Positions 28,251 through 52,969 of a DNA stretch of 64,000 nucleotides are shown here, in pieces (position 1 is the first letter of the stretch; each line of letters begins with the position of its first letter). The stretch comes from a candidate division WOR-3 bacterium (lineage in GTDB: Bacteria; Hydrothermota; Hydrothermia; Hydrothermales; JAJRUZ01): NCBI GenBank assembly GCA_024277525.1, contig JAJRUZ010000008.1:20091-84090 (forward strand), read 5' to 3'. A model generated the notes under the pieces. The model saw only the letters and a list, made by a program, of their open reading frames with translations, was not told the DNA's origin and searched no databases. Made by a program: the position numbers and the translations under genes.

Positions 28251-28261
28251 TTACGCGATGA

Positions 28262-28648: not shown

Positions 28649-28753
28649 TTTAAAAGGGGGCAGGGGATGTTTAAATTCTCTTGAACTAAAGTCATTTTTT
28701 ATTACACTCTAAGGGTGTAATTAGAGTTAGGGGTCTTCAGAAATTACAACAGT

Positions 28754-28963: not shown

Positions 28964-28964
28964 A

Positions 28965-29222
28965 TCATTCCTCCTTAAAGTATTTTTTAATTTTGGTAGT
29001 ATAATAAAAAGTTATTATTTTTTTCTCATTTCCTGAAGATGTGAATATTACCCTTAATAGCCCTTTAGTCCACTTTTTCTGAGCTATTACAGTATTCATA
29101 TCACCTGCCACTACTTGAGCAGGATTTTTAAGCACATTTTCTACAATTTCTTTTGTAATTCCCATTTTTTTCTCCCATTCTTTTTGGCGTTCTTTCGCAT
29201 GTTTGGCCCATATAATTTTCAC
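28965..29222 (-). CDS. DUF4258-family protein (predicted toxin of the DUF4258/DUF2283 pair).
   Basis: 85 aa, MKIIWAKHAKERQKEW...; separated from the DUF2283 gene by 1 nt. Confidence 0.6.
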   Translation of the reverse strand: MKIIWAKHAKERQKEWEKKMGITKEIVENVLKNPAQVVAGDMNTVIAQKKWTKGLLRVIFTSSGNEKKIITFYYTTKIKKYFKEE

Positions 29223-29291
29223 TCAAAATATTATATTCCTTCAAGTCAAATTTTTCAAATATATTCAAATTGCAATTTTTATACTTCTGAG

Positions 29292-29450
29292 GTGTTTATC
29301 GCGTTTTTTTGCGTTTGTCGCGTTTGTTGGGTTTATAAATATGCGGGACGAGCGGGACGGGCGGGAAAAGCGAGAGGGGTTTGTTGCGCTTTTCGGGCTT
29401 ATCGTGTTCATTGGGTTTTTCGTGTTTATTGGGTTTTTTGCGTTGATTAT
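29292..29450 (+). repeat. Composite repeat element. A left arm of 9-mers (TTTATCGCG, TTTTTTTGCG, TTTGTCGCG, TTTGTTGGG) is followed by a TTTATAAATAT core. Then come four GCGRGANNN units (GCGGGACGA, GCGGGACGG, GCGGGAAAA, GCGAGAGGG), a right arm of 7 units (GTTTGTTGCG...TTTTTTGCG) and a TTGATTAT terminus.
   Basis: Direct reading. The layout is the same as the copies at 29587, 47062 and 49372. Confidence 0.85.
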
Positions 29451-29586
29451 ATTCTGTTTAAGCTCCATTTACAGTTTATCTTCCTTTAAATAATAAAAGC
29501 TGGCATAGAGCTCTTAAAAAGATTTTGAAATCTAAATAAAGGCTTCTGTTTTTAACATAATAAAGGTCATATTCCTGTCTATATAT

Positions 29587-29664
29587 GTCTATTGCGTTTA
29601 TAAATAGGCGAGAAAAGCGAGAAAGGCGGGAAACGCGAGACGCGTCTATTGCGTTTTTCATTTG
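29587..29664 (+). repeat. Compact copy of the same element: GTCTATTGCG, TTTATAAATAG, GCGAGAAAA, GCGAGAAAG, GCGGGAAAC, GCGAGACGC, GTCTATTGCG.
   Basis: Direct reading; it abuts the 3' end of the wecA-like gene. Confidence 0.85.
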
Positions 29665-30710
29665 AGATTTTTTAACTCTTCCTGTTTCTGGTAAGGGAAT
29701 TTTTCGAATATTCTTATGAGAATTAAGCCTGTTATGATTATTAAGGCAAAAATTGTATAGGAAATCCAGAATTCCACCCTGTAAATAAATACTGAAAACA
29801 TTCCACCCAAAAATCCCAGAAAATACATTAAAAGAACCGTTGTTTTCTGGCTTAAGGAAAGATTGTATAATCTGTGATGCACATGGTCTTTTCCGGGATG
29901 TAAAAAGGGAATTAGTCCTCTTTTTGCTCTTGAAATTGTTATTAAACTTGTGTCAAATATCGGAACAATAAGTATTAAAATCGGTATCATCCATCGTGTC
30001 AAAACAGGTAAAGTTTCCGAATTTGCAACTCTTAATCCAAGGGCAGCAAGTAAAAATCCCAGAAATATTGCTCCTGAATCTCCGAGAAAGATTTTTGCAG
30101 GATGAAAATTATAAATAAGGAATCCAAGGGAGGCTCCCATGAGTGCAAGGGAAAGGGTTATAAGAATAATATCTCCTGTTTTTAATCCGAAAACAAAATA
30201 AAAGGTTGAAGCAATCACTGCAATACCTGAAGAAAGTCCATCCATTCCGTCAAGAAGGTTATATGCAGCGGTTATTCCAACAACCCAGAAAATTGTGAAT
30301 AAGTAATTTAAAATTGAAACATTAAAAATTTTTAAATGAAGGTTAAAAAATATCAAAATTAATCCTGCAATGGGCATACCCACCATCAATTTTATCTGGG
30401 GATGAATTTTCCCCATATCATCAAAAAGTCCTATCACAAGAAGCATAACAGCACATCCGAAAATAACAAAGAGTTCTTTATTGAAAGGATTATGAAAAAA
30501 CAAAGGAAAAATACCCGCAATAACACCAAAAAATACAGCAACACTGCCGAGGAGGGGAATGGGAGTTTTGTGGATTTTTCGGGGATTGTCAGGATGGTCA
30601 TAGATTTTGAAATGGATGGCAATACTTTTTACCACAGGAACAAGAATTAAACTTGTCAGAAAAGACAGAATAAGAGAAATCATATTCATATTCATATTTA
30701 TATTATTCAA
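29658..30710 (-). CDS. wecA: UDP-HexNAc:undecaprenyl-phosphate HexNAc-1-P transferase (WecA/MraY-type polyprenyl-phosphate glycosyl-1-P transferase).
   Basis: 350 aa with 10-11 TM helices and MraY/WecA loop motifs (DDMGKIHP, NLLDGMDGL). Confidence 0.7.
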   Translation of the reverse strand: MNNINMNMNMISLILSFLTSLILVPVVKSIAIHFKIYDHPDNPRKIHKTPIPLLGSVAVFFGVIAGIFPLFFHNPFNKELFVIFGCAVMLLVIGLFDDMGKIHPQIKLMVGMPIAGLILIFFNLHLKIFNVSILNYLFTIFWVVGITAAYNLLDGMDGLSSGIAVIASTFYFVFGLKTGDIILITLSLALMGASLGFLIYNFHPAKIFLGDSGAIFLGFLLAALGLRVANSETLPVLTRWMIPILILIVPIFDTSLITISRAKRGLIPFLHPGKDHVHHRLYNLSLSQKTTVLLMYFLGFLGGMFSVFIYRVEFWISYTIFALIIITGLILIRIFEKFPYQKQEELKNLK

Positions 30711-31813
30711 TTCTTGGTAAAAAGTTTAAAAATTTTTTCATATTTTGAAATTACCTTTTCCCAACTATAAACCTTTTTCACTCTTTCAATTACCTTTTTT
30801 TCTATATCTTCTAAAAACTTCCCATTTTTTTCTAAATGTTCGATTTTTGATAATAAATCTTTTTCTTTCTTTGTAAAACTAAATCCACAATTTTCTATAA
30901 CTTCAAGATTATAAGGCACCTTCAGAACTATGGGACATTTCCCAGCAGCCATTGCCTCTAATAAGGCGGGATTTGTTCCCCCTGCTTCATGACCGTGTAT
31001 ATAACAATATGCATTTCTTAGGATTACTTTATAATCTTCTCCATACACAGCTCCCAGAAATTTAATTTTATGATTTGCCATTCTTTTAAGTTTGTTTTTA
31101 TATTCAATACTATGAGGTGTGTCCCCAATAATCACGAGTTTTTTCTCACCCTTATACTTAATGAATTCTCTAACCGTAATATGAGGGTTATTTTCAGGTT
31201 CAATACGACATACCTGAAGAAAATATTCTCTCGGCTTTAAACCATATTTTTTTAAAACTTCCAGATCTTTACCACTGGAATTATTATTTATATCTGCTCC
31301 ATAGGGAATATATACAGGTTCTTTTTTATATTTTCTTTTAAAATATTTTTTTACGGCTTTTGAATCAGCGATTATTATATGACAAAAAACGCTGGCTAAA
31401 GCCTCAGAAAGTCTCAAAAAGAAAGAGGCAATTTTTGACCACTTCGGTCTCTTCCATTCTATTCCGTCAACATTTATTATTATTTTTTTACCCAGCAATC
31501 GCGGAAGCCAGCATAAAAGAACAGGAGAAACACCCAGTAAAAGGAGCACTTTATTTTTAGAAAATGATGCATGGATAACTGATAAAAATGAAGTAGAAAC
31601 CTTTTCCAGAAATTTCACATTAATTGAAGGAAGCCATATTCTTTTGACTTCAGGGAAATATTTATCTTTTTCAGGATTTCGATACTTCTTAAGACCATAC
31701 ACTGTAAACTCATATCCTTTATCTTTTAAACCCAGAACAAGTTTATTTACAAATGTTTCAAACCCTCCGTAACTTACAAGAAACCCTCTTGAACCAATAA
31801 TGGCTATCTTCAT
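30707..31813 (-). CDS. Glycosyltransferase, GT-B fold (DUF1972-type N-terminus: IAIIGSRG...YGGFETFV).
   Basis: N-terminal motif characteristic of the DUF1972/GT1-like family; a GT-B C-terminal domain. Confidence 0.6.
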   Translation of the reverse strand: MKIAIIGSRGFLVSYGGFETFVNKLVLGLKDKGYEFTVYGLKKYRNPEKDKYFPEVKRIWLPSINVKFLEKVSTSFLSVIHASFSKNKVLLLLGVSPVLLCWLPRLLGKKIIINVDGIEWKRPKWSKIASFFLRLSEALASVFCHIIIADSKAVKKYFKRKYKKEPVYIPYGADINNNSSGKDLEVLKKYGLKPREYFLQVCRIEPENNPHITVREFIKYKGEKKLVIIGDTPHSIEYKNKLKRMANHKIKFLGAVYGEDYKVILRNAYCYIHGHEAGGTNPALLEAMAAGKCPIVLKVPYNLEVIENCGFSFTKKEKDLLSKIEHLEKNGKFLEDIEKKVIERVKKVYSWEKVISKYEKIFKLFTKN

Positions 31814-32991
31814 TTATTTCTCCTCTTATGCAATTTTATTGCTTTTTCATAAATTTCCATAAGCATTTTATAATTTTTTTCAGGAGTATACTTTTCTTCA
31901 TATTCTTTTCTCGCATTCCTCGCCATCCTTTCCCTTTCCTCAGGGTGATTCCATAACCACAAAACTTTTTCAGCAAGGTCTTTAGGATTTCCGGGTTCAA
32001 AAAGTAAACCTGTTTCACCATGTTTTACAAGGTATTTAAGTGAGCCAATTCTTGAGGCTATAACTGGTGTACCACATTGAAAAGCTTCAATTAAAGTCAG
32101 AGGGAATCCCTCATACCAAATAGAGGGCATAATTAGAACTTTTGCTTTTTTAATGATTTTTAATAAATTTACTTTTGATTTAAAACCCAAATATGATACA
32201 TTATGTGGTAAATAAGTTTTTATTTCTTCTGACAACGGACCACTTCCTACAATTTTTAAAGTGATGTTATTAATAAAAGAAAAAGCTTTTAATAACACTT
32301 TAATGCCCTTTTCTTCAGATATTCTACCAGAGAATACTATATAATTATCTTTCTTAAAGGAAGGAGTTATAGAATCATCTAAAAAATTAGGTTTTACAGT
32401 AATTTTAGAAGAAGGTATCCCAAATTCTATGAATTTTTCCTTAGCAAATTTTGATAGAACAATATAATAAGAGGGCAAAGCAAAATAATTATTTAATTTA
32501 ATCTTTCGTAGCATAGCATAAACAGGCAGCGATTTTAAATAGGAATTTTGAAAACATTTATGCAATAATGAAAAGTATTCATTTTTTTGTGGGCATAATT
32601 CACATACATGACCTTTTCTAAATAGAAAAGCACTGGAACAGAACAATCTGAAATCATGTAAAGTATGAACAAAAGGAACTTTTTTTTCTTTTAAAGCCTT
32701 ATAGATAGAGATAGAAAAAAATGGAAATAGATTATGAATATGAACTATATCAAATTTTTCTTTTTCAAGCAATTTTTTCAATTCTTGGTAGCTGTTTCTT
32801 GACCACGGAATATTTAACGCGAATCTAATTTTTTGTTTTAAATTCATATTCTCAATAAGGTCATTTTCTTTGTAAAACAGCTTTACATAATGTCCTTTGC
32901 TTGAAAGTAACCTCACTTCATTTTTCACCACAGTATCATCACCGCTTGGAGCACCTCTCCTGTGAAAGTTATGTATTACAAGAATTTTCAT
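31810..32991 (-). CDS. Glycosyltransferase family 4.
   Basis: GT-B C-terminus (EGFPLTLIEAFQCGTPVIAS). Confidence 0.7.
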   Translation of the reverse strand: MKILVIHNFHRRGAPSGDDTVVKNEVRLLSSKGHYVKLFYKENDLIENMNLKQKIRFALNIPWSRNSYQELKKLLEKEKFDIVHIHNLFPFFSISIYKALKEKKVPFVHTLHDFRLFCSSAFLFRKGHVCELCPQKNEYFSLLHKCFQNSYLKSLPVYAMLRKIKLNNYFALPSYYIVLSKFAKEKFIEFGIPSSKITVKPNFLDDSITPSFKKDNYIVFSGRISEEKGIKVLLKAFSFINNITLKIVGSGPLSEEIKTYLPHNVSYLGFKSKVNLLKIIKKAKVLIMPSIWYEGFPLTLIEAFQCGTPVIASRIGSLKYLVKHGETGLLFEPGNPKDLAEKVLWLWNHPEERERMARNARKEYEEKYTPEKNYKMLMEIYEKAIKLHKRRNK

Positions 32992-34088
32992 TTATCAATC
33001 AAAGTCTTTAAAAATCTCAATAAGGAAAGTTTAGAAATTCTACTTTTTTCATCTCTTTCTCTTCTATTCCAAAGGCTATCATCTAATAAAAGTTCCATTA
33101 AATATAATTTTAAGATGAATAAAATAATTTCATCAGAAATATTAAGACGGACCATTCCTAGGTAAATATTTATAAAGAAATAAAATTTCTTTAACTTACC
33201 CAAAAGGGTCTCAGGAGATACTTTATTAAAGAGACTCACATAAGTAAAAATTATATAAGCAAAAATATCCCATAAGGGCAATCCTTCTAACCTCGCATCT
33301 TCCCAATCAAATAAGAAGAGTTTAGATGTTTTTAAGTTTCTCACGAAATTCCAGGGTTTAAAATCATAATGCACAATCCCTAAAGGGATTAATATATTTT
33401 TATTTTCTTCCATTTCTTTTAAAAGTTTCTCTCTTTCCTTTTCATTCAAAAATTTTACTTTCTGAAGATTCTTTTCTATTTTCTTATATAAATAAGATTC
33501 ACCTAATTCCTTCATATCTGTCTTACTCAGAAAAAGCTCGGCTGAAATTTTCACAATTTCTTCATTAAGCTCATAATTTCTGAGTAATGAATACTTCTCA
33601 GGAGAAGTAAGAAAGATAAAGAAAAGTTTGTTGTTATATTCTCCATACTTTATCACTTCCGGAACCTCAAAGGAATTAAAATTCATTTTTTTTAATAAAT
33701 TTAAAATTTTTATTTCGGACTTAAGCAATTCACTCCCCTTTTTATCAAACGAAATTTTCATAAAACCAAAAACCTTATTATGGTTAATTATTTGAACTAC
33801 AGCTTTTTTTTCCGAAGGAAAATAAAGATTTATGTCATAAGAATTGTTTTTTATTTCTTTTTTAATAATTTCATCAATTAAAAAAACTTTCTCCTGTATT
33901 TCTTTTCTTAGATTAGATTTCAGATATCTTAACAGAGGCATAGAAATATAAAGGAACATTTTCTTTACTTTACTTTTCCAAGTAAAATCTCCATATAGTT
34001 TTAATCCCATTTTAAAAACATTAAAATTGCTAATGCTAAATAAATAGCAGGGATACGAATTGGAAGGCAAAGCAATTCTTTTTTTCAT
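32988..34088 (-). CDS. Protein-kinase-fold phosphotransferase (APH/choline-kinase-like).
   Basis: Catalytic-loop HYDFKPWN (HxDxxxxN) and metal-binding DWEDA. Confidence 0.5.
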   Translation of the reverse strand: MKKRIALPSNSYPCYLFSISNFNVFKMGLKLYGDFTWKSKVKKMFLYISMPLLRYLKSNLRKEIQEKVFLIDEIIKKEIKNNSYDINLYFPSEKKAVVQIINHNKVFGFMKISFDKKGSELLKSEIKILNLLKKMNFNSFEVPEVIKYGEYNNKLFFIFLTSPEKYSLLRNYELNEEIVKISAELFLSKTDMKELGESYLYKKIEKNLQKVKFLNEKEREKLLKEMEENKNILIPLGIVHYDFKPWNFVRNLKTSKLFLFDWEDARLEGLPLWDIFAYIIFTYVSLFNKVSPETLLGKLKKFYFFINIYLGMVRLNISDEIILFILKLYLMELLLDDSLWNRRERDEKSRISKLSLLRFLKTLIDK

Positions 34089-35317
34089 ATTAATCCAAGT
34101 TTTACATATATTTCTTTAATTTGTTTTCCTTTTACATCCCAGGTGTAATATTTTTTTATCCTCTCTATAGCACCCTTACTCAATTTCATCCTGAGGTTTT
34201 CATTCTCTACAAGACTTAAAATTGCTTTAGCAAGGTTCTTAACAGTATCTTCATAAGAAGTTATATCAACTTTAATACCACAGGTTTCATCTACCATTTC
34301 TCCTGGCCCTCCATAATTCAAGCATATCACAGGTAATCCACAACTCATGGCTTCCAAAATTACCATTCCTGCTCCTTCAAAACTGGGATACAAAAAAATA
34401 TGTGAAGAAGAATAAATTGACCAAAGAGACCTTCTATCCATCCATTTCAAAATGGTAACTTTTTCTTTTAATTTATTTTTTTCGATATATCTCAGAATAT
34501 TATTCTTTTCTTTCCCTTCTCCTACCAAAATAAATCTTAAATTTTTATCGCTCTCTTTTAAAGCAAGTCTGAATGCATCTAAAGCAACAAATATTCCTTT
34601 CCATTTTAAAAATCTTCCCACAAAAAGAAGTTTAATATTTTCTGAATCTCTTCTACTCTTATAGTCTATAGATTCTACAGCAATTGCAGGTATTATTTCA
34701 ATATATTTTTTTTTCACATATATTTTTCTGTAGCTCTCCTTATTAATAACTATAACCGCATCCGCTAATTTTTTAGTTATAATAAAAAAAGGATTTAAAC
34801 GAGAAAAATCACGAAATTTTATTTTTATTTTTTCAATGACCTTATCTAAATAATTCAGTAAGAATCGAGAAGGAACTTCTGGATGACTTCCAATAGGTCC
34901 CCATATAAATCTCAAATGTTTATATTTAAGTTTAAGAAGAGAGAGGTAACAAGGTGTATAGTCATTTACAAAAGTTACGTGATGTATTGCGGTTATATTT
35001 TCCAGATTTATTATTTTGGGTATTTTAAAAAGAGCATAGATCTGCCACAGGTGATAGTATAATCTTACCCCTTTTTGTTTTTTCTTCCAAAATCTTATAT
35101 ATTGGGGAAGATCTATATAAATAAAATTTATTCTTTTATTTGGGTAATTTTTTAAATAACTCTCAATTACAGTTCTGTTATTATCTCTTGTTATAACCCA
35201 AATTTCAGCAAATTCAGACATTTTCTTTGTCCAATTCCATCCCACCCCCGGTTCTGAGCCTTTGTTAGGTTCACAAGCATAAGCTACAACTAAAATTTTA
35301 TTTTTTTTGATTTTCAT
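34085..35317 (-). CDS. Glycosyltransferase family 4.
   Basis: GT-B with the C-terminal EGAGMVILEAMSCGLPVIC motif. Confidence 0.7.
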   Translation of the reverse strand: MKIKKNKILVVAYACEPNKGSEPGVGWNWTKKMSEFAEIWVITRDNNRTVIESYLKNYPNKRINFIYIDLPQYIRFWKKKQKGVRLYYHLWQIYALFKIPKIINLENITAIHHVTFVNDYTPCYLSLLKLKYKHLRFIWGPIGSHPEVPSRFLLNYLDKVIEKIKIKFRDFSRLNPFFIITKKLADAVIVINKESYRKIYVKKKYIEIIPAIAVESIDYKSRRDSENIKLLFVGRFLKWKGIFVALDAFRLALKESDKNLRFILVGEGKEKNNILRYIEKNKLKEKVTILKWMDRRSLWSIYSSSHIFLYPSFEGAGMVILEAMSCGLPVICLNYGGPGEMVDETCGIKVDITSYEDTVKNLAKAILSLVENENLRMKLSKGAIERIKKYYTWDVKGKQIKEIYVKLGLI

Positions 35318-36485
35318 TTATATAAAGTATTGAAAACACTAACGCTAATATAAACCAAAATATTCTCATTGTGAATAAACTCAACGTCACACCTCCAAGG
35401 AGAAGATTATAATAAGCTAATCTCACAGAATCCAAATTTTTTTTCTCTCTGGTAACAAGTTCCTTTAAAGGATAAAAGAAAAAAAATAATATTGCAAAAC
35501 CAAGAGGTAATCCCATAAAAGTTATAACCTCTAAATATAAATTATGCGGGATATAAAGCCCTTTTACTCAAATTTCTTCTCCACCTATCCCTATTCCTAA
35601 AGGGAACTGAAAAATTAATGTAAGATAGTATCTCCACAATATTGCTCGTGAATCCGCAAATATTTGTGCCTTTGATAATCGTTCCAAAATTAAATTAATT
35701 TGTTCTTTTGTAAAAGGAATGAACATTAATATCAAAATACCAGATAATAAAAACAGATTAATTAAAAAATATATATTTTTTTTTCTTAATTTCATTTTAA
35801 CATTAAAAAAAGACCTTGCACCAAAATAAATTATACTAAAAAATAAAATAATCAACCCTGTCCTGGAATATGTAAAAATAATAATCCCCGTGGTGAATGA
35901 TAACAGTATCAATCTCAAAATAAAAGACAATTCTTCAATATACAAAACCATAGAAAAAATTAATACCATATATAGAGCCAAATAGTTAGGATCAGAAAAA
36001 GATAAAATCAGTCTTTTTTTCCAGGGATTCCATTCGAATATTTCTAACTTAAAAAGAAAAGGTATAGCTAAAGTAGAGAAAAAACTATAAAGAAACCATT
36101 TTTGTATCTTGATAGGTGTAAGCATTCTCATTTTAACTAAAAATAAAATTTCAAAAAAAAGAAGCAATGAAATAAAAAATCTACCTGAATGAACCATAAG
36201 GCGGAAAAAAGAGTTGATATTGGAATAGAAATTCGAATGCATTAATAAAAGAAACATATTATAAATTACAAGAAAAGTAAAAAAAATAATAATTTTAAAT
36301 ATAATACCCCCAACGGGTATATACTTATACTTTTTATAATACACTAAAATAAAAACAAATATCAAGAAAAAAAGAGAAACAATGAAAACATCGCTAATTT
36401 TAAATATTAAAATATTAAATTCATCTCTTCTAAGGGGTAAAGTTAAAATAATAAAAAAAAGAGCAAAATTAATAATCTTTTTCAT
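35298..36485 (-). pseudogene. wzy: O-antigen polymerase/ligase-family (Wzy-like) membrane protein interrupted by a single in-frame TGA at 35568-35570.
   Basis: ORFs 35568..36485 and 35298..35516 are in the same frame, with 17 sense codons between them. Multiple TM helices; the IGIGGEE region is typical of Wzy_C. Confidence 0.5.
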
Positions 36486-37843
36486 GTAATTTTCTTTTTA
36501 ATATAGTGTAACAAAAAATTAAGTATTTTTTGTCTGGATTCACAGACAGAGTTCTTAAAAGTAGGCACTATTTTAAGTCCTTTTTCTTTATACAAATAAA
36601 TTTTATATAAATTTTGTAGTAAAACAATTCTATTTAGGGACAATTCTGGTTTTCTACTTATTATTATACTACTATCGCAATCTAAATAAAATGAAATGTC
36701 AGGTTTAGGAATGAATAGCAAATAAATATAATAAAGAAATTTTCTGGGAAGAGATATACGTACTCTTTCTCTATCAATTACTATATCTAAATAGTATCTA
36801 TCAAATACTACTAAACTTTCCCTTGAAAGAAGTGGTCGTATTTTAAAAATATACCCGATAGTGTATTCTAAAATATAATACAAAACCTTTATTAAACTCA
36901 TCACTTTACTATAAGGTTCTACCACATATGGATTACCACTATCTACAATTCTACTTTTGGGTAAAAAGAAATCTATTAAAAAAGTTAAAGCATCTGGTTT
37001 AAAATGGAAAACCTTTATATCTGAAAAATAAAAAAGTTTATTAGTTTTTATAAGTTCACTTATTAAAGTACTCTTACCCGAGCCATCTGGTCCATAAAGC
37101 GCTATAAAAATACCGTCTTTTTTTAGATAAAAAAACAACATCTGTAGATAATACATCACAAAATTAATAGCAAAAACAATTGGCTCTTCTAGTATTCTTT
37201 TCAAAAAAACAGAAAATATAATTTTTTTCCTTACCTTGTATAATCTTTCCAGCGTTGCTTTTTCTGTAGTTAGTTTGGGATTTAAAAATATTGCAATAAT
37301 AGTATTACTTAAATTTAAAGTAAATAATTTTGCAAGAGATTTTTTCAAAATGCTTTTATAAGGACTTTTCAATATAGAATTAAGTTTTCTTCCATATTTA
37401 TTTAATATTCTCTTCCCTTTACCCTTTATAAGTTCTTTTATAATTATAATAAGAAACTCGAGATCAGGAGGAGCTACACATACTCCATCTTTATTCACAA
37501 TTGCTTTAGTTAAATATTTTTCTGATTCAAAAAATTTTATTCCTTTAAAATCTAATGAATATATAAAATCAAATTTTAAAAAAACAAAACTATCATTCTT
37601 ATTTACAAAAAAGCCTACTCTTCTAACACCCGGGAGACTTTTGTACCTTATTAATTCCACTTTTCCGACTCTTTTAAGGGTTTTTATCAAAATCTCAATT
37701 GCTTTGTTTATATAAGCTCTTTTTATCAATAAATCAATATCTTTAGATTCTTCTAACTGTAAATACTCTTTGGTAACAATATAAGGTATTCCTTTATTTC
37801 TTAAAGTTACTAAACATTTTTTTATCAGGCAAAATTTATTCAT
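36482..37843 (-). CDS. Hypothetical two-domain protein with a C-terminal P-loop (ALYGPDGSGKST), kinase-like.
   Basis: Walker A motif; embedded in the glycan cluster. Confidence 0.35.
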   Translation of the reverse strand: MNKFCLIKKCLVTLRNKGIPYIVTKEYLQLEESKDIDLLIKRAYINKAIEILIKTLKRVGKVELIRYKSLPGVRRVGFFVNKNDSFVFLKFDFIYSLDFKGIKFFESEKYLTKAIVNKDGVCVAPPDLEFLIIIIKELIKGKGKRILNKYGRKLNSILKSPYKSILKKSLAKLFTLNLSNTIIAIFLNPKLTTEKATLERLYKVRKKIIFSVFLKRILEEPIVFAINFVMYYLQMLFFYLKKDGIFIALYGPDGSGKSTLISELIKTNKLFYFSDIKVFHFKPDALTFLIDFFLPKSRIVDSGNPYVVEPYSKVMSLIKVLYYILEYTIGYIFKIRPLLSRESLVVFDRYYLDIVIDRERVRISLPRKFLYYIYLLFIPKPDISFYLDCDSSIIISRKPELSLNRIVLLQNLYKIYLYKEKGLKIVPTFKNSVCESRQKILNFLLHYIKKKIT

Positions 37844-37853
37844 AAGGTTTAAA

Positions 37854-38981
37854 TCAAATTAAATCTTGCCCTATTTTCTCATATTCTTTATTCATTTTTT
37901 CGGCGATTTTATTCCATAAAAAATTCTTTTCTGCTAATCTCCAAGCAGCATCTCTCATTTTCAACCATTCCTTAAAATTAAGGGTCAATATTTGTCTTAA
38001 AGTATCCCTTAATGAATGTACATCTGTGGTAGTAACAAAACCTGCGTTATGATGCTGTATAACTCTCTTTGGGTCCAAGAAATCGGATACAATTACAGGG
38101 ATTCCAAAAGAAAGCGCCTCAAGGACACTTAAAGGAAGACCCTCAAATCTAGATGTATAAATAAAAAAGAAACTTCTTTTAAGAAATTCAATTTTTTCTG
38201 AACCATACATTTCTCCCATGATAAATATTTTTTCTTTTAAATTTAGATTATTAATCAAACATTTAATTATTTTTTCGTCATTTTTAGTAAAAAATGGACC
38301 AATAAGATATAAAGATATTAAAGGAACTTCCGCCATAGCTTTGATAAGTATGTCTAATCCCTTGTTAAATACATCTAATCTCCCTATAAAAGTTAAAATT
38401 TTAGATTCAAATATTTTCTTTTGCATCAGAATAGGTGAATTTTCAAAATAAATTGATTCTACTCCGTTAGGAATTATTGTTACTTTACTTTTTTTAATCC
38501 CAAATTTACAAATGTCAATAGCTTCTGCTAATGAAAGCGCACGTATTTTTATGGCTCTTTGGGTATAAAATTTGACAATAGGAATAACAATTTTCTTTTT
38601 ATATTTACTTTGTGCCAAAGCCTTAGCCCGAAGGGAACCATGTGGTGATATTAAATATTTGATTTTATATCTGTTTAATTTTAAAGCCAAAATCAAATTA
38701 TAAATGCTAAATATGCCATGAAGATGAAATATTACATTATTTTTAGTCTTTTTTAACTCCGAATCTATATTTTTTTTGAAATTTAAAATATGTGACGGGA
38801 ATATTTTACATTTTATACCCGTATCCAGTGTATATTCTCCGGGATTTTTACGCGAGGAAATACACCATACTTCTACATCAGAATATTGTAACTCATGTTT
38901 ACTTAGATAATAGACAGACTTCACCACTCCATTAGAACTTTCAGGTTTCGGCCTCCCAACGAGAAAATGTATAATTTTCAT
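37854..38981 (-). CDS. Glycosyltransferase family 4.
   Basis: GT-B C-terminus (FEGLPLSVLEALSFGIPVIVSD). Confidence 0.7.
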   Translation of the reverse strand: MKIIHFLVGRPKPESSNGVVKSVYYLSKHELQYSDVEVWCISSRKNPGEYTLDTGIKCKIFPSHILNFKKNIDSELKKTKNNVIFHLHGIFSIYNLILALKLNRYKIKYLISPHGSLRAKALAQSKYKKKIVIPIVKFYTQRAIKIRALSLAEAIDICKFGIKKSKVTIIPNGVESIYFENSPILMQKKIFESKILTFIGRLDVFNKGLDILIKAMAEVPLISLYLIGPFFTKNDEKIIKCLINNLNLKEKIFIMGEMYGSEKIEFLKRSFFFIYTSRFEGLPLSVLEALSFGIPVIVSDFLDPKRVIQHHNAGFVTTTDVHSLRDTLRQILTLNFKEWLKMRDAAWRLAEKNFLWNKIAEKMNKEYEKIGQDLI

Positions 38982-39979
38982 GCCTTTTTCTTAAATTTTT
39001 CCTTAATCTTAATACCAAAAAAAATCAAACGATACAAAAAAGTCAAAATATTTATTTTCCAATCACTATAATTTTTATAATTTCGTAAATAATATTTTCT
39101 ACTTTTTATAAAATATTTATATAAATTTTTTGAGGGTGGGGTATGTAGATGTAAAACCTCTACGGTAGGCAAGAAAATTATTCTTTTTCTTTTTCTCTTT
39201 ATCATTGATGAAATAATTGCTTCTTCACCATATAAAAACACATTTTCATCTAACAAACCAATTTCTTTAAAAAATCTTGTATCAAAAAACATACAACATC
39301 CTGCTATTCTTTCTACCTCTACTGGATTGTTCTTATCTGTTTTGATAACAAAATTAATCTTTTTAAAAGGAGATATTAAAAGTCTAATAATTTCTTCCCC
39401 AAAATTTGGCTGTCTCAAAGGGGATTGGTCTTTACCGTATTTATCAATCACTCTAGGTCCAATACAATAAGCCTCATCAAAAATTTCTTTCGTTTTAAAC
39501 ATTTCATAAATTAAATTTTTAGAAACGATTATCACATCAGGATTGAGTAATAATACACCTTGAGCATTAATAAGTACTGCATATCTTATTCCCACATTGT
39601 TCCCTCCAGAAAAACCCAAATTTTTACTTGTTTGAATTATAACCAATCTTCTATTAGAAGGATATTTTTTTAGAACCTTCTCAAGTTTACTTATACCCCC
39701 TTTCTCTGCAGTTTCTTTATCATATTCTACATAAAAAACTGGTTTTAAGTCTTTTCTGTATTCAACATATTCAGAATCAACTTTAATTTTCCCTTCAGCC
39801 CATTCTTTAATTTTTTCTACTGACTCATTGTTTGAACCATTGTCAACTACAATCATTTGGTAATTAGGATAATCAATTTGCTGAATTGACTCCAAACATC
39901 TAATACTATCTTGCCATTTTTTGTAATTTAGAACTATTATTGCAATTTTTGGATAATTATTCATTTCACATATAACCAA
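38978..39979 (-). CDS. Glycosyltransferase family 2.
   Basis: GT-A N-terminus (IAIIVLNYKKWQDSIRCLESI...MIVVDNGS). Confidence 0.75.
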   Translation of the reverse strand: MVICEMNNYPKIAIIVLNYKKWQDSIRCLESIQQIDYPNYQMIVVDNGSNNESVEKIKEWAEGKIKVDSEYVEYRKDLKPVFYVEYDKETAEKGGISKLEKVLKKYPSNRRLVIIQTSKNLGFSGGNNVGIRYAVLINAQGVLLLNPDVIIVSKNLIYEMFKTKEIFDEAYCIGPRVIDKYGKDQSPLRQPNFGEEIIRLLISPFKKINFVIKTDKNNPVEVERIAGCCMFFDTRFFKEIGLLDENVFLYGEEAIISSMIKRKRKRIIFLPTVEVLHLHTPPSKNLYKYFIKSRKYYLRNYKNYSDWKINILTFLYRLIFFGIKIKEKFKKKA

Positions 39980-41576
39980 GCCCTTCTAACTGTCTTTTTA
40001 TTTTTTCATCTTCTGATAAAGATAACTCTGAATCTTTTTTATACTCAACAATATTTCCCTTTCTAAAACTTATAGGATGAGATTTTAAATAATTTTCTAT
40101 AAATATTTCCTTTAAAACTCTGCCTTCAATATTCGATGGTATAGGAACATCCAAGGTATAAAGTACAGTAGGTAAAATATCCATAAGTTTCACTTCTTTA
40201 AGTTTATTCCTCTTGATTTTCTTACCCTTTGCAATAAAAATACCTTCCAGTCTATGACAACCTGTGTGTCTATCTGAATAAGGTGTATTCTCGTATACTC
40301 TGCCTTCAAATTGATTTTTAGGTAAGACACATCCCCAGTCATTTATACTTATTAAAATATCTGGTATATCTGAACTATCAGAAAAAGATTTAAAAATTTC
40401 TAATTTAAAATTTTGCTCTTTAGCAATTACTCTGAGGTCTCTTATAATAGAATTAATCATTCCCTCTCTGTTAATACCAGAATTTTCCAAATATTTTTTG
40501 TTAAGGTATATTCCACCAAAAGGAATTGTGTGCCCTGGGTCAAATGCAATTGTATTTTGCCAATCAATCTCATCCAAAATACGAGGTTTAAATGAATTTA
40601 CTGTTTTTTTACCCCATTTATAAACCTTTGGAAAATATTTGTAGAATTTTAATTTATTTGAAATTTGGGTTAAAAAATAAAGAAAAGTTTCTTTTATAAT
40701 TTTGATATTACAGTATTTTTTCTTTCTTTTTAAATAACGTTGTTGTTCTAGCCAGTAATTAAGTCTAAAAACAGAAGTATTTGGACCAAATCCGTGATCA
40801 GAAATAATAAAAAATTCCCCTCCTTCATCAACTATATCATCAAGAAATCCTATAATTTCGTCTATTTTTGCCCAAAATTTCTTAATTTTAGAATTATACT
40901 TATTAGTTTTTCTTTCATTAGTTGTATCAATATATTTCCACATACGATGTTGAAACCAATCAGTTTCAGAAAGTACTATAAATGCTATTCTCCATTTCTT
41001 ATTCATAAGAAGATATTTAATAATTTTATACTTATTCTCTAAAGTTTTAAAGAGATCATTTAAAAATAAAGTCACATCATCGTATTTAGGATGATGGTAA
41101 TTTACTATAAAATCAAACCCATTGCTTACTATTCTTAATATTTCTTTTTTTAAATACGAAGGAAAAGTGAACTCATCTTTTATTGTAGCAGGAAAACCTG
41201 AGATTATAATACCATCAATCTCATAAGGAGGATAAAGAAAAGGATAATTCACAATAATTGGACGCATACCATATTCTTCAACATAATCCCATAAAGATCT
41301 ATTTTTAAAGAAAGAAGAATCAATAGGTTTCATCTTGTTATTCTTTTCATCAAAATACATAAAATCAAAGATACGGAGAGAAAAGGGAGATAATCCAGTA
41401 GCAATAGACAACCAAGCAGGTGCAGTTACAGGAGGAATAACACTTTTTAAAATTCCCAAAGCACCCTTTCCCATTATCCTTTTTAAATTGGGCATTACTC
41501 CTTCTTTAATTAAAGGAGAAATTACATCAAAAGTTGCTCCATCTAAACCTAGAACAATTATTTTATTTGTTTTCAT
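39966..41576 (-). CDS. Alkaline-phosphatase-superfamily protein (type I phosphodiesterase / nucleotide pyrophosphatase family).
   Basis: N-terminal LGLDGATFD...PAWLSIATG metal-site motif. Confidence 0.55.
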   Translation of the reverse strand: MKTNKIIVLGLDGATFDVISPLIKEGVMPNLKRIMGKGALGILKSVIPPVTAPAWLSIATGLSPFSLRIFDFMYFDEKNNKMKPIDSSFFKNRSLWDYVEEYGMRPIIVNYPFLYPPYEIDGIIISGFPATIKDEFTFPSYLKKEILRIVSNGFDFIVNYHHPKYDDVTLFLNDLFKTLENKYKIIKYLLMNKKWRIAFIVLSETDWFQHRMWKYIDTTNERKTNKYNSKIKKFWAKIDEIIGFLDDIVDEGGEFFIISDHGFGPNTSVFRLNYWLEQQRYLKRKKKYCNIKIIKETFLYFLTQISNKLKFYKYFPKVYKWGKKTVNSFKPRILDEIDWQNTIAFDPGHTIPFGGIYLNKKYLENSGINREGMINSIIRDLRVIAKEQNFKLEIFKSFSDSSDIPDILISINDWGCVLPKNQFEGRVYENTPYSDRHTGCHRLEGIFIAKGKKIKRNKLKEVKLMDILPTVLYTLDVPIPSNIEGRVLKEIFIENYLKSHPISFRKGNIVEYKKDSELSLSEDEKIKRQLEGLGYM

Positions 41577-43075
41577 TAAAAACCAATTTTATACTTTATA
41601 TATTTTATAAACTCGTGATCCTTTTTATCAAATATTTTAAATTTATACAAATAACCTATATAAAGAAAAGTAAGTATAAATGTACCTACAATAATTAGAA
41701 TCAAGGGTGGAAAAATCTTATTACAAAAATTTACAAAAAGATACATACCCCAGCCGATACTAAGCATACCCAAAATATATTTGAAATATTCCGGCCTAAA
41801 AGGATTAAGACGATATAACCACAATATTTCAATAAAACCACATAATCCACCTATTATGGGAGAAATAGAGGCTACTATGGATGCTCCAATAAGCCCATAA
41901 CGAGGTATTAACATGTAACTTAATATAAAATTAATCCATAAAATTATAAGAGAATTCAACATACTTAATTTGGTATTACCAAAGGCTTCCAAAGTCATCC
42001 CTTCAGGCCCAAAACATGAATTTATAAATTTGCCTCCGGCAAGTATAAAAAGTGCAAGAGGAGCAAGAAGATATTTATCAGTAAATAAAATTTTTACTAT
42101 CTCCACACCAAAAAGTAAAATTATCATAAAGCCTAAAGCGTTTATAAGAAATATCCATTTAGAAATCCGTTTATATATATTTCGGACCTCATTAAGTTCT
42201 TTTTGTGCTATCAATTCTGAAATAACAGGTTTGTAAATCTGGGCAAAAGATGACATAACAAGACTTATAAAAAATGTTAAATACATATAAATCCTGAAGA
42301 CTCCTACTTCAGCAGAGTTACGAAAATAACCTAAAAATAGAATAGAAATCTGCCCTGTTAAAAGTATAAGGATACTATTAACACTCAAAGGCCAAGAGTA
42401 AGATATAATTTCTTTAAAATTAATCTTTTCTGATGATACATTTGATAAAGAATTTAATATATGCTTTTTCAAAAAAATAAACGCAAAAAAGGAAGTTAAA
42501 GCTAAGGAAATAATATAAGCCCATACCCATCCTAAAAGTTTAAATCCAAGTATAAAAACAATAATTGCAAAAATAATTTGAAATAGTGGAAAAATAAATT
42601 TTTGAATATAAACTTGATATCGTAACTCTTTAAATCCTATAAAAGAAAAGACAATAATTTGTATAAGCGCAAGCATCGGGATACTAAGAATCATGATTTT
42701 AAATACTGGAATTAACATCTGTTTTTTAAATATAGAAATAGAAATATATTCAGAACTTAATAAAAAAATACTTCCAATAATAATACTCAAAAATAAAGAC
42801 CACTTTACTATAGAATAAATCAATGTTTTTATTTTACCTCTATTTCCAGAACTATTATAAAAAGGTATAAACCTATCCAAGGCTTTATGCATCCCTAAAA
42901 GAACAAAAATCAATGAAACATTAATTACCGTTTGAGCTAAAACAAATGTTCCAAATTCTTCTGGGCTTAAAAACCGAGTCAATATCATCAACAAAATATA
43001 ATTCAATACCATCCCAATAATTGAACCGAAGAAGTTTATCCCAGATTCTTTTAAAATTTTCAGCAAATAATTCAT
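41576..43075 (-). CDS. wzx: Polysaccharide flippase (Wzx, MOP superfamily).
   Basis: 499 aa with about 12-14 TM helices and a Wzx-like N-terminus. Confidence 0.7.
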   Translation of the reverse strand: MNYLLKILKESGINFFGSIIGMVLNYILLMILTRFLSPEEFGTFVLAQTVINVSLIFVLLGMHKALDRFIPFYNSSGNRGKIKTLIYSIVKWSLFLSIIIGSIFLLSSEYISISIFKKQMLIPVFKIMILSIPMLALIQIIVFSFIGFKELRYQVYIQKFIFPLFQIIFAIIVFILGFKLLGWVWAYIISLALTSFFAFIFLKKHILNSLSNVSSEKINFKEIISYSWPLSVNSILILLTGQISILFLGYFRNSAEVGVFRIYMYLTFFISLVMSSFAQIYKPVISELIAQKELNEVRNIYKRISKWIFLINALGFMIILLFGVEIVKILFTDKYLLAPLALFILAGGKFINSCFGPEGMTLEAFGNTKLSMLNSLIILWINFILSYMLIPRYGLIGASIVASISPIIGGLCGFIEILWLYRLNPFRPEYFKYILGMLSIGWGMYLFVNFCNKIFPPLILIIVGTFILTFLYIGYLYKFKIFDKKDHEFIKYIKYKIGF

Positions 43076-43077
43076 TT

Positions 43078-44316
43078 TTATCTCTTACAGTACCATTTTT
43101 TTACAAACTCCTTATATTCCCTATCACTCTCCCTCACCTTCCTCCACCACCATTCATTCTCCACATACCATTTAACCGTCCTCTCAATTCTATCCTCCAA
43201 CCCCCAACCCCTAACCCCTAATTCCGAATCCCCAACCCCTAACCCCAATTCCCTAATTTTACTATCATCAATACTATATCTCCTATCATGCCCCGGTCTA
43301 TCTTTTACAAATTTTATCAAAGATTCGGGTTTTCCTAAAATTTTTAAAATCATTTTTACAATTTCTATATTTTCTCTTTCATTTCTTCCTGAAATATTAT
43401 AAACTTCACCTATTTCTCCTTTTTCTATAACTAAATCAACTCCTCTGGCACAGTCTTCAACATATAACCAATCTCTTTTTTGTCTGCCGTCTCCGTATAC
43501 GGGTAATGGTTTATTATTTAAGGCATTTATGGTCATCAAAGGAATTAATTTTTCGGGATATTGATAGGGACCAAAATTGTTGGATGGTCTGATGATTATG
43601 ACAGGAACTTTATAAGTATTGTAATATGCAGAACACAACCTGTCTGCTGCTGCTTTACTTGCTGAATACGGATTTTTAGGATTTATAGGGTCTGTTTCTT
43701 TAAAACTTACACCTTCAGGAGCAGGTCCGTAAACTTCATCGGTTGAAATATGGATGAATTTCCACACATTTTTATTTTTTCTTAAAGATTCAAGAAGAAC
43801 ATAAATTCCGTATACATCGGTTTTTATAAATGCATCAGCCTTTATTATTGACCTGTCAACATGAGTTTCAGCAGCATAATGAACAATTACATCTGATAAA
43901 CTGAAAAGAATATCCGTAACCTCTCGGTCCATAATATTTCCTATTACAAAAATTAACCTTTCTTCCTGAAGTAAATCCTGAACAACATCTTTTAAATCGG
44001 ATAATTTAACAAAATTTACTTTATAACCTTCTGTTTTTAATTTTATTCTTTCAAAATCTTCATTTAAGTTTTCTATTTTTACTTTTGTCTCTTTATCCTC
44101 AAAAATTCTTTTAACATTTAAAATAGTTTCCTGTTCGAGGGGAAATATTATGTTATCTTCATTTAAATAATCTTTTAAATTATCCAGATTTCCGGCATAG
44201 GTTAAAATATCAAGAACTATTATTTTATCGTTTGAATTTTTTAATTTATACCTTACAAATTCGCTACCCATAAAACCGGCACCACCGGTGACTAACAGGG
44301 TATAAGATGTGTTCAT
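43078..44316 (-). CDS. rfbB: dTDP-glucose 4,6-dehydratase with a ~60-aa insertion and a repeat-derived C-terminal insert.
   Basis: TGGAGFMGS Rossmann motif, catalytic YxxxK (YSASKAA), and the C-terminal WY..N.WW motif. Confidence 0.85.
   Translation of the reverse strand: MNTSYTLLVTGGAGFMGSEFVRYKLKNSNDKIIVLDILTYAGNLDNLKDYLNEDNIIFPLEQETILNVKRIFEDKETKVKIENLNEDFERIKLKTEGYKVNFVKLSDLKDVVQDLLQEERLIFVIGNIMDREVTDILFSLSDVIVHYAAETHVDRSIIKADAFIKTDVYGIYVLLESLRKNKNVWKFIHISTDEVYGPAPEGVSFKETDPINPKNPYSASKAAADRLCSAYYNTYKVPVIIIRPSNNFGPYQYPEKLIPLMTINALNNKPLPVYGDGRQKRDWLYVEDCARGVDLVIEKGEIGEVYNISGRNERENIEIVKMILKILGKPESLIKFVKDRPGHDRRYSIDDSKIRELGLGVGDSELGVRGWGLEDRIERTVKWYVENEWWWRKVRESDREYKEFVKKWYCKR
43186..43262. 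repeat. G-rich (sense strand) in-frame tandem duplication GAATT(G/A)GGGTTAGGGGTTGGGG inside rfbB; G-quadruplex-prone.
   Basis: Direct reading; it encodes ELGLGVGDS-ELGVRGWGL in place of the usual ELGW. Confidence 0.7.
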
Positions 44317-44318
44317 TT

Positions 44319-45383
44319 CTAAAGTTCTATTTCTGAATAATCACCGATTGAAACCCTGTAAGCTCTGTGAGAATTTTCTTTTCTGTGTAATTTTGCATAT
44401 TTACCTATCAAACTGTCTTCAAGCCTATCAATTTTTGTTATTTCAGCAGAATCAAGAACCACAGAGTTCTGAATTACAGAATCTATAATTTTAACATTAT
44501 TCCCTATGCTTGTATAGGGTCCTATGAAGGAGTTTTCAATTATTGTATTTTCTCCGATTATCACCGGACCTTTAATTGTAGAGTTTTTGATAACGGCGGT
44601 TTCTTCAATTTTCACTCTTCCTGAGATTTTAGTTTCTCCGTCTATTTTACCTTTTATATCTTTTTTTAAAAATTCATCAAGAACTATTGTATTTGCTTCA
44701 AGTAAATCATCTTTTTTTCCTGTATCAAGCCACCAGCCTTTTAGAACATGAGGAAGTACATTTCCTCCGTTGTCTAACAGACCCTGAATAGCATCTGTAA
44801 TTTCATATTCCCCTCGCCATGATGGTTTAAGGGATTCTATTATTTCATGGATTTGAGGAGTAAAGATATAAACACCTACAAGAGCAAGGTTTGAAGGTGG
44901 TCTTTTAGGTTTTTCAATTAATTTTTTAACTTTTCCGTTCGAGTTCACAACAGCAACTCCAAAAGAAGAAGGATTTGAAACTTCTTTTAACAAAATTAAG
45001 GCATCAGGATTTTCAGCTTCAAAAGTTTTTACAAAAGAACAAATGGATTCTCCTATAAGATTGTCTCCCAGATACATTATAAAAGAATCGTTTCCTAGAT
45101 AGTCTCTCGCAACTTTAACCGCATGGGCAAGTCCAAGGGGTTCATCCTGTAATATAAAAGTAAAATTATGATTCCATGGATTTTTAGAAAGTGAATCTTT
45201 TATTAAATCACCTGTCTCAGGTGCAATGATTACTCCCACATCTTTAATTCCTGCATCTTTTAATTGGTCCATAACATAGTGAAGTATTGGCTTATTTGCA
45301 ACAGGAACAAGTTGTTTGGGTATTGTATGAGTAATAGGACGCAGGCGCGTCCCTTTACCCCCAGCCAAGACAAGCGCTTTCAT
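44319..45383 (-). CDS. rfbA: Glucose-1-phosphate thymidylyltransferase (long form with a C-terminal left-handed beta-helix).
   Basis: MKALVLAGGKGTRLRPITHTIPKQL. Confidence 0.85.
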   Translation of the reverse strand: MKALVLAGGKGTRLRPITHTIPKQLVPVANKPILHYVMDQLKDAGIKDVGVIIAPETGDLIKDSLSKNPWNHNFTFILQDEPLGLAHAVKVARDYLGNDSFIMYLGDNLIGESICSFVKTFEAENPDALILLKEVSNPSSFGVAVVNSNGKVKKLIEKPKRPPSNLALVGVYIFTPQIHEIIESLKPSWRGEYEITDAIQGLLDNGGNVLPHVLKGWWLDTGKKDDLLEANTIVLDEFLKKDIKGKIDGETKISGRVKIEETAVIKNSTIKGPVIIGENTIIENSFIGPYTSIGNNVKIIDSVIQNSVVLDSAEITKIDRLEDSLIGKYAKLHRKENSHRAYRVSIGDYSEIEL

Positions 45384-47846: not shown

Positions 47847-47890
47847 CTCCTTTCTCGCCTTTCTCGCATTACCACCCGTCTCGCATTTTA
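47847..47890 (-). repeat. GCGAGA-array module in reverse orientation (reverse complement: AAAATGCGAGACGGGTGGTAATGCGAGAAAGGCGAGAAAGG); it supplies the last codons (MRDGW, stop) of the DUF4143 ORF.
   Basis: Direct reading. Confidence 0.7.
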
Positions 47891-49153
47891 ACCCATTTCC
47901 AGAAAGGTAATACTCTGCAGGTTATACCTTCTTTTTTTTCTTCATATTCCTGATCACGGGTTATTATTATTCCTGATTTTAGGTTTAAAAATTTACAGGC
48001 TTTTATAAGCCCTTCTATCTCCCTTTTTTTATTTTCTGAATTTATCTCCCATGTGACCTGGATTGCCTGCAATTTGCCATTATTTTTAACCACAAAATCG
48101 CATTCGCCATCTTTATTAAAATAGTATATCTCATATCCTTTTCTTTTCAGTTCAAGAAAAACCACATTTTCCAGCAACCTGCCGTAATCTTCGGATTTGA
48201 CTCTTTTTGCAAGACCTGTATCAACAAGATAAATTTTTGGGTGGATTCCTCATTCTTTTATAGGAAGATTCGGAAAAAATCCTGCTTTCGTATACGAGCA
48301 TGCTTTCAAGAAAATATCTGTAGTAGGAAAAAAGGGAATCTTTTGAAAAAGGGAATTTACCTTTATATTTTTTATAGAAAGAAATAAGGGAAAATCGGGA
48401 TGAAAAGGAGGAGAAAAGGTTCTCCTGCAGGGTTTTCAGCAGGGTTATATTTGTTATATTGAATCTTTCCACAAGGTCTTTGAAGAACATTGCATCAAGA
48501 TATTGGCTTAAAATCTTTTTTCTCATGAATTTTTCTTCAATAAAAGAGACCTCAGGGAAACCACCCCATTCAAGATACTCATTAATATAAGCTTTTAAAA
48601 TTGACTTTTTTCTCCCATAAATCTCTTTTGTTTCAAATTTTTTTGCTCTTAGAAATTCGGTGAAGGAAAAGGGGTAAACCTCATATGTCCATGCCCTTCC
48701 CCTTAAAGAAGCATGTATTCTGGAAGGAGTTATCTCCGAAGAGGAACCTGCAACATAAACATCTATGTTCTCCCTTTCAACCAGTCTCCTGACAAATTTT
48801 TCCCATCCCTTTATATTCTGTATTTCATCAAATAGAAAAATTACTTTTTTTTCTTTAACAAGGCGGGAATTGAGTTCAAAGAAAATATCCTTGATTTTTT
48901 CAAGGTCATCCAGGGTTATTCCCTCAAGTCTTTCATCTTCAAAATCTATATAAAGGGCTTTTTCAGGATTTTTTTTAAATACACTGTAAAGCACAAATGT
49001 TTTGCCACTCCTTCTGACTCCATAAATGACTTTAACTTTTTTGAGTTTTTGAGGGAAAACAATACCTTCCCTCTCTATTATATTTTTTATTTCATTATTT
49101 ATAAATTCTCTGCCCGTAAGTATTATTTCTTTTATTGTATCAGAACTGACCAT
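47869..49153 (-). pseudogene. COG1373-type AAA ATPase (AAA_14 plus DUF4143) split by a frameshift into 48221..49153 and 47869..48177.
   Basis: The N-terminal ORF has a Walker A (GVRRSGKT) and Walker B (VIFLFDEIQ). The C-terminal ORF is a DUF4143-like domain. The two are in different frames. Confidence 0.6.
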
Positions 49154-52338: not shown

Positions 52339-52339
52339 T

Positions 52340-52969
52340 TTATTTAAGTCTCTGAAGTGTTATGTAAAAATTTAAGACCGAGGCTGTTAAGGCAAGGGCA
52401 TTCAGCACAAGCCCCCAATTAATGGTGAACTTCTCCGGTACGTACACTACATCACCGGGCTTTAATTCTATGTTTTTGACAAAATCTCCTTTTTTAAGTA
52501 TCTCTTCAACATTCACCTCAAATGAGACCGGGTTTTCTTTTCTGAATATAACAACTTTTACCTTTTTAAGGTTAGCCTTCTGTGTGGGTCCACCTGCAAG
52601 TGCAATGTAATCGGTGAGCTTCAATCCCCTCTGGTACTCCACAGCACCGGGTCTTAAAACCGCTCCGAATACCGAAACATAAGGCAAAGAAGGACTTTTT
52701 AATATTACGGAAACAAGGGGATGAGTGAAATATTTTGAGAGCTTTTCCGAAATAAGCCTTGATGCTTCCTCGGTTGTTAAACCAACAACCTTTACTTCAC
52801 CTATAAGGGGAAAGGATATTGTTCCGTTTCTCATCACCATTACGGTCCTTGATAGATTTTCCTCACCTACAACAAGAATTTCAAGAACATCCCCTGTTTC
52901 AATTTTATATGTTGAAGATTGCGAAAACAAAGGAAAAAATATAAATAAAAATATCAAATTTTTTTTCAT
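52340..52969 (-). CDS. wza: Polysaccharide export protein (Wza-like: Poly_export plus SLBB).
   Basis: Signal peptide plus YKIETGDVLEILVVGEE...; a second beta-grasp-like domain (KPGDVVYVPE). Confidence 0.7.
   Translation of the reverse strand: MKKNLIFLFIFFPLFSQSSTYKIETGDVLEILVVGEENLSRTVMVMRNGTISFPLIGEVKVVGLTTEEASRLISEKLSKYFTHPLVSVILKSPSLPYVSVFGAVLRPGAVEYQRGLKLTDYIALAGGPTQKANLKKVKVVIFRKENPVSFEVNVEEILKKGDFVKNIELKPGDVVYVPEKFTINWGLVLNALALTASVLNFYITLQRLK

Follow-up and report, generated by a model that had tools for sequence, protein, structure and literature searches.

What has become of a polymerase gene whose conserved reading frame continues past a stop codon? The question is raised by a wzy-like gene of a candidate division WOR-3 bacterium, located in a stretch of 64,000 nucleotides from contig JAJRUZ010000008.1 (assembly GCA_024277525.1). 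This whole stretch is referred to here as the window. The gene belongs to the Wzy_C family, lies on the minus strand (ancestral full-length frame 36485..35298) and is the sole polymerase candidate in a surface-polysaccharide cluster, where one in-frame TGA interrupts it. We consider it likely that this stop is a nonsense change, and that the sequenced genome has its polysaccharide pathway switched off.

A polymerase frame interrupted at codon 306

The interruption consists of a single stop codon in an otherwise continuous frame. Inspection of the frame and the sequence shows 396 codons, with stops at codons 306 and 396 only. The list of open reading frames (ORFs) divides this frame into a 305-amino-acid product that ends at the TGA (36485..35568, minus strand) and a 72-amino-acid product that ends at TAA (35516..35298, minus strand). 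The TGA itself, codon 306, occupies positions 35570-35568 (minus strand). It is separated from the 72-amino-acid ORF by 17 sense codons, which read VKGLYIPHNLYLEVITF in the frame shared by both ORFs. The first-pass annotation of this DNA had described two ORFs in one frame, joined by sense codons and parted by a nonsense mutation rather than a frameshift. We find the same: there is one internal TGA, every codon of the spacer is a sense codon, and the frame is unchanged across 36485..35298.

The orphaned 3' part of the gene (35567..35298, minus strand) comprises 89 codons plus TAA, and is both open and family-like. A tail of this kind stayed open in 5 of 20,000 mononucleotide shuffles and in none of 5,000 dinucleotide shuffles; in its two alternative frames, the same stretch contains 12 and 3 stops. 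In DNA of 28% G+C, 89 open codons past the wzy TGA are not due to chance. The other 57 ORFs of the window extend in frame past their stops by at most 28 codons, barring run-on into the next gene. The gene also keeps its place in a compact minus-strand operon, where its start codon and the stop of the gene before it share the letters ATGA. Its TAA, and with it the 3' end, sits 20 nt inside the downstream glycosyltransferase (GT) gene.

TGA is a true terminator here, as had been proposed from the ends of rpsQ, rplN, rplX and rplR. Among 58 window ORFs it serves as the stop in 29, with 25 ending in TAA and 4 in TAG, and many of the TGA codons form ATGA overlaps. The genes for S17, L14, L24 and L18 stop at TGA exactly where the NCBIfam equivalog profiles end, and these profiles are matched from end to end.

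The joined product, 395 amino acids with an X at residue 306, is a Wzy_C protein. It matches Pfam Wzy_C (PF04932) with 36.2 bits against a cut-off of 31.7, and the match (residues 195-332, profile positions 3-148 of 149) spans residue 306. The 305-amino-acid ORF alone scores 25.9 bits, which is under the cut-off. Besides reaching the gathering score, the joined protein carries the loop arginine, the P-x-G-x-G motif and the H-N motif of the family. No NCBIfam model matched it.

Homologs of the protein are continuous across the stop. When 1.84 billion representatives were scanned exhaustively with HMMER, both fragments themselves and 36 other proteins were recovered, with 23-36% identity over local matches and a best non-self E-value of 7.8e-10. 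All 36 alignments cross residue 306 unbroken in one chain, full-length members having about 370-510 amino acids, and none of these homologs stops here and leaves the rest to a second gene downstream. In an alignment of 24 sequences, R158, S207, R280, P295, G297, G299, N315 and G325 are invariant, and H314 is conserved in at least 90%. The 305-amino-acid product keeps the first six of these (R158, S207, R280, P295, G297 and G299). H314, N315 and G325 lie past the stop, together with the last three membrane helices.

Profile and structure comparisons point to the same family. When the alignment profile was compared with the PDB, the best match was an oligosaccharyltransferase (9rmk_A, 3.5e-20), and the WaaL O-antigen ligase was also matched (7tpg_B, 9.3e-12); the query H-N pairs with the H-N of both. 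Counted in the alignment, R280 corresponds to R265 of WaaL 7tpg_B, and H314/N315 to H313-N314. An AlphaFold2 model built on the alignment (predicted local distance difference test, pLDDT, 81.2; predicted template modelling score, pTM, 0.84) has about 12 long helices in a WaaL-like polytopic fold of the GT-C_B type. In this model, residue 306 falls in loop 294-315, between the P-x-G-x-G and H-N motifs. Past the stop follow a short helix (316-324) and transmembrane helices 326-345, 349-367 and 374-390. The top Foldseek match in the PDB is again WaaL 7tpg_B (E 1.8e-5, probability 1.00, TM 0.52), and the next is FtsW 8bh1_A. Thus the earlier description of the gene as an O-antigen polymerase or ligase-like wzy, with a transmembrane topology that continues downstream, agrees with the Wzy_C score, with WaaL as best structural match, and with a domain and helices that extend across the stop in Pfam, alignment and model alike.

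We take H314 to be the histidine proposed as catalytic in WaaL and matched in PglS, a link made through the WaaL alignment and the WaaL/PglL literature. A study of PglS states that its H324 corresponds in alignment to the histidine proposed as catalytic in WaaL, and used H324A as an inactive control (PMC12800693). As judged from the protein itself, sequence and fold cannot tell Wzy from WaaL or PglL; the cluster context suggests that this one would polymerise rather than ligate. The protein shares with Wzy polymerases (PF04932; GT-C_B fold common to WaaL and PglL/PglS) the conserved arginine, P-x-G-x-G and H-N, and its gene likewise lies between wzx and GT genes, wza and wzc being part of the same cluster. 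It differs from them in being extremely divergent (at most 36% local identity) and interrupted by a stop.

The proposed course of events is as follows. A single-base nonsense change would have arisen at codon 306 of 395, and translation would stop in the periplasmic loop just before the His-Asn motif, so that the product would lack this motif, G325 and the last three transmembrane helices. On the grounds of family conservation and published mutagenesis of relatives, the truncated Wzy is expected to be inactive. As in other pseudogenes, the stop lies inside a conserved domain, the homologs are continuous, and the stop codon is a true terminator. The lesion looks recent, because the invariant residues, the open 3' part and the operon-style overlaps are all preserved. 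With translation ending 250 nt short of the next start, the GT genes downstream should also lose their translational coupling to wzy.

The polysaccharide cluster and two further lesions

A second gene of the pathway is also interrupted. The break surfaced while the read-through lengths of all ORFs were being checked, and it lies in a wzc-like tyrosine autokinase gene with an 826-codon frame (52338..49861, minus strand) and one internal TAG. This TAG is codon 486 (50883-50881, minus strand), and the break reads EKLYTFFA*KLEETRVQEAGV, with the asterisk marking the stop. In the joined Wzc of 825 amino acids, Wzz, GNVR and AAA_31 domains are accompanied by a tyrosine cluster at the C-terminus. Its GNVR domain (residues 466-541) spans the TAG and is detected in the joined sequence only.

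For Wzc, we found 119 single-chain homologs of 771-1144 amino acids, with 48-78% identity, many of which are named candidate division WOR-3. In the column of the TAG, 110 of them have E, 3 have G, and Q, K and D occur in 2 each. The closest homolog (78% identity) has CAG at this site, a single C-to-T difference from the window gene. A metagenome search for the exact DNA pattern around the wzc TAG found nothing. The domains and tyrosine cluster of the joined frame are those of Wzc/Etk-type (PCP-2a) autokinases, from which the window gene differs in being broken by the TAG before its second membrane segment. Two-gene (PCP-2b) systems are not known to be split naturally at the place of this TAG.

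The third lesion is a frameshift. It affects a gene for an AAA_14/DUF4143 ATPase (49153..47869, minus strand) within a 4.5-kb insert that separates one half of the cluster from the other. The frame is lost at a run of five A residues, read as T5 at 48234-48238 on the plus strand. Removal of one A yields ...NPPKIYLVDTGL... and a protein of 427 amino acids, which has a full DUF4143 match (55.7 bits, positions 2-159 of 160). A genuine mutation may have caused this frameshift, or an error in sequencing. About 50 other ORFs of the window were scanned as well. Most of them have domain matches consistent with full length, and a few have no Pfam match and could not be judged in this way. The intact-looking set includes ribosomal proteins, ClpX, ClpP, trigger factor, SmpB, ThiC, cyanophycin synthetase and Tad pilus genes.

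The locus is a Wzx/Wzy-dependent, Wza/Wzc-exported polysaccharide cluster. Its biosynthetic half, delimited by domain matches, occupies 29658..45383 (minus strand), and its export and regulation half, made up of wza (52969..52340, minus strand) and the wzc-like gene, occupies 49861..52969 (minus strand). The biosynthetic half encodes a Glycos_transf_4 priming enzyme (29658-30710, minus strand) and a Wzx-type flippase (41576-43075, minus strand), along with four GT1/GT4 enzymes, one GT2, an APH-like and a phosphodiesterase-like gene, an epimerase/dehydratase and a sugar nucleotidyltransferase. Read from 3' to 5', the order is Glycos_transf_4, GT1/GT4 with the APH-like gene, wzy, a P-loop kinase-like gene, GT4, GT2, the phosphodiesterase-family gene, wzx, the epimerase/dehydratase and sugar nucleotidyltransferase genes, the 4.5-kb insert, the wzc-like gene and wza. 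The cluster contains a flippase, a priming phosphoglycosyl transferase, GTs and one polymerase candidate; no other Wzy_C or polytopic polymerase candidate was present among the ORFs scanned. The polymer is probably an exopolysaccharide or capsule exported by Wza and Wzc, rather than an O antigen.

A related cluster with the same architecture occurs in another WOR-3 metagenome-assembled genome (MAG), at the locus labelled L082. This cluster has an intact Wzc of 807 amino acids, a Wzx and a Wzy_C protein of 440 amino acids, and the latter has no detectable similarity to the window Wzy. The only protein in common is the P-loop kinase-like one, which in the window has 453 amino acids (36482-37843, minus strand), a weakly dTMP-kinase-like P-loop C-terminal half and no Pfam match above cut-off. 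It recurs at L082:20852-22204 with 27% identity (E 1e-25), and it may be an uncharacterised conserved component of such clusters. A NusG/UpxY-like gene is present in L082; no degraded copy of it was found upstream of wza in the window.

The insert that parts the sugar-nucleotide genes from wzc (45384-49860) has contents of its own. It contains a HEPN and nucleotidyltransferase pair (46058-47033), nucleotidyltransferase-like fragments (45635-45757 and 49497-49793) and, recognised by eye, a candidate HicA/HicB-like pair (47289-47625). Repeated elements of 30-150 nt separate its genes (about 45844-46062, 47666-47893 and 49263-49416). Intergenic arrays with a period of 9 nt lie in the insert at 47105-47158 and also at 28150-28240, 28592-28636 and 29291-29464, with units such as GGGTTTATT and GCGTTTGTT. 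Just upstream of the priming-GT end of the cluster there is a 73-nt direct repeat (29322-29394 and 29587-29659). The 1.66-kb stretch 27998-29657 is devoid of long ORFs.

Two arrangements elsewhere in the window may be recorded here. A ribosomal run, S17-L14-L24-L5-(S14)-(S8)-L6-L18, stands alone at 11445-15620, with a divergent Tad-pilus cluster upstream in place of the S10 operon. Downstream, a GT4 gene (14472-15620) that overlaps the L18 gene by 4 nt takes the place of rpsE-rpmD-rplO-secY. This arrangement reflects either an unusual break in the operon or a join made during assembly. The Tad-type pilus cluster, which has a secretin and two T2SSF genes, includes a gene for a 730-amino-acid fusion of an N-terminal AAA_31/ParA-like (TadZ-like) part with a T2SSE (CpaF-like) ATPase (7426-9618, minus strand).

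Mutation, sequence error or decoding

Several points weigh against a pathway disabled by mutation. The collections searched yielded no reads, second strain or close ortholog, and the stop could exist in the assembly only. The alignment column at residue 306 is variable (V, I, A, T, Y, L and F). The lesion in the ATPase gene is an extra base in an A5 homopolymer, a typical signature of sequencing error. The loss of function in truncated Wzy is one that we infer. Finally, UGA is the leakiest stop codon in bacteria, and traces of full-length Wzy could be made.

The alternative that retains most weight is an artefact of sequence or assembly, which we regard as a possibility to be kept in mind but an unlikely one. 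Under this explanation, consensus or base-calling errors, or damaged template DNA, would have hidden a sense codon at 35570-35568, probably also one at the wzc TAG and the true length of the ATPase A run, and wzy would be intact. The presence of three lesions in a 16-kb part of a contig of draft type (93,929 bp) would suit such an origin. So would the C-to-T difference between wzc and its closest homolog, a change that is also typical of deaminated template, and the otherwise perfect preservation of both wzy and wzc. However, neither substitution, TGA or TAG, lies in a homopolymer, and no lesion was seen in the housekeeping genes scanned across the window. Errors confined to an accessory polysaccharide region would be unexpected, a weak argument given three events (by area, approximately p = 0.05 on our own estimate).

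Comparison with relatives bears on this point at family level only, as no relative of wzy exceeds 36% local identity. A word-index search of 5.8 billion clusters for the wzy product returned the protein itself only, and peptide scans of genome and metagenome contigs for close wzy orthologs found nothing. Synteny anchored on thiC was examined at 80 loci, where the best thiC identities were 78% (a Kryptoniota MAG) and 76% (a Melioribacter MAG), and none of the 80 carried the cluster. Taken with the WOR-3 names among the Wzc homologs, these thiC matches suggest that the source is probably a lineage related to the FCB group and uncultured. With a variable column and no close ortholog in the collections searched, several codons are candidates for the ancestral one at position 306. 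Among the one-step neighbours of TGA, the codons TTA, GGA, AGA and TCA are common in the genome, while TGG and CGA would involve transitions, like the change in wzc.

Next comes leaky or regulated read-through, in which a near-cognate tRNA would decode the UGA at low frequency and leave wzy attenuated rather than dead. The fully preserved 3' part of the gene and the leakiness of UGA speak for it; recent mutation explains this preservation equally well. No SECIS-like or stimulatory fold was found 3' of the wzy UGA (z-score against shuffles 0.01), and an Rfam scan of the window gave no match at gathering thresholds. Moreover, wzc is interrupted by UAG rather than UGA, and therefore no single suppression mechanism would rescue both genes. 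General suppression would be costly, since TGA ends half of the window ORFs, including ribosomal protein genes. We thus consider read-through improbable. The first-pass annotation had proposed a polymerase that is inactivated or dependent on read-through. Inactivation is favoured by the predicted loss of motif and helices, and what is left of the second option is low-level leakiness, there being no sign of programmed recoding.

We also considered whether the polymerase could work in two pieces, the 305- and 72-amino-acid ORFs each encoding a functional subunit. The second ORF begins with an ATG at 35516, the sole in-frame ATG past the TGA, with GAGG 11 nt upstream, and the two pieces occur as separate predicted proteins in public collections. 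However, the codons for H314-N315 (35541..35546, minus strand) lie 3' of the TGA and 5' of this ATG, in a 17-codon spacer that has no in-frame ATG, GTG or TTG, and therefore neither ORF supplies the His-Asn motif. In addition, none of the 36 homologs is split at residue 306, and the break falls within one Pfam domain. A functional split gene is therefore very hard to credit.

Just as doubtful is a maintained "leaky-stop gate", in which the UGA of wzy and the UAG of wzc would hold polymer output very low, or revertible by single transitions. If true, an uncultured WOR-3-like lineage would be using stop codons as an ON/OFF or dimmer switch for one of its surface polymers.

Selenocysteine at the wzy TGA, or a genetic code that reads TGA as sense (code 4 or 25), has the in-frame TGA within a preserved frame as its whole case and is effectively refuted by the stop usage of the window, in which long TGA-free genes abound and ribosomal genes stop at their profile ends, by an aligned column that lies in a variable loop rather than a redox centre and has no Cys in any homolog, and by the missing hairpin, so that wzy has neither the Cys or Sec in relatives nor the 3' SECIS of a selenoprotein gene.

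Probable loss of a surface polymer

A nonsense change in wzy remains the reading we prefer, and the wzc lesion fits with it. A CAG- or GAG-to-TAG change in wzc would add a second hit, by which the gene for the co-polymerase and export kinase would also be knocked out. This would be an ordinary case of losing a surface structure that is dispensable and under strong selection, with phage pressure or culture as conceivable selective causes.

Similar losses are known from cultured bacteria. In Escherichia coli Nissle 1917, a premature stop in wzy leads to a semi-rough O6 lipopolysaccharide (Grozdanov et al. 2002, cited in PMC12678401). There too, going by the title and the account given in the citing paper, the polymerase gene carries a nonsense change (exchange of one nucleotide) while the rest of the cluster is intact. 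The Nissle phenotype, as described there, was shown by experiment (one repeat unit on the core, serum sensitivity), whereas the window locus is known from sequence alone. The window locus also differs in that a second pathway gene, wzc, is hit. Phage-selected wzy mutants of Pseudomonas aeruginosa carry premature stops or frameshifts (e.g., C1075T in PAO1w-1), sometimes together with mutations in other surface-polysaccharide genes (PMC7065532). These multi-gene hits provide a plausible selective reason for a multi-hit loss. The P. aeruginosa mutants were selected in the laboratory from a known ancestor, whereas for the window locus a selective agent can only be inferred.

For annotation, we suggest that 35568-36485 and 35298-35516 be merged into a single wzy pseudogene, and likewise 50881-52338 with 49861-50796 into a single wzc pseudogene, instead of being counted as two hypothetical proteins in each case. 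Unless reads disagree, the pathway should not be scored as functional in metabolic or phenotype reconstructions. The pattern is a familiar one, in which surface-polysaccharide loci are lost early when phages or hosts exert pressure, or when cells are grown in enrichment culture. Such a loss is of a well-known kind; what is new is the divergent member of the Wzy_C family that it would have affected.

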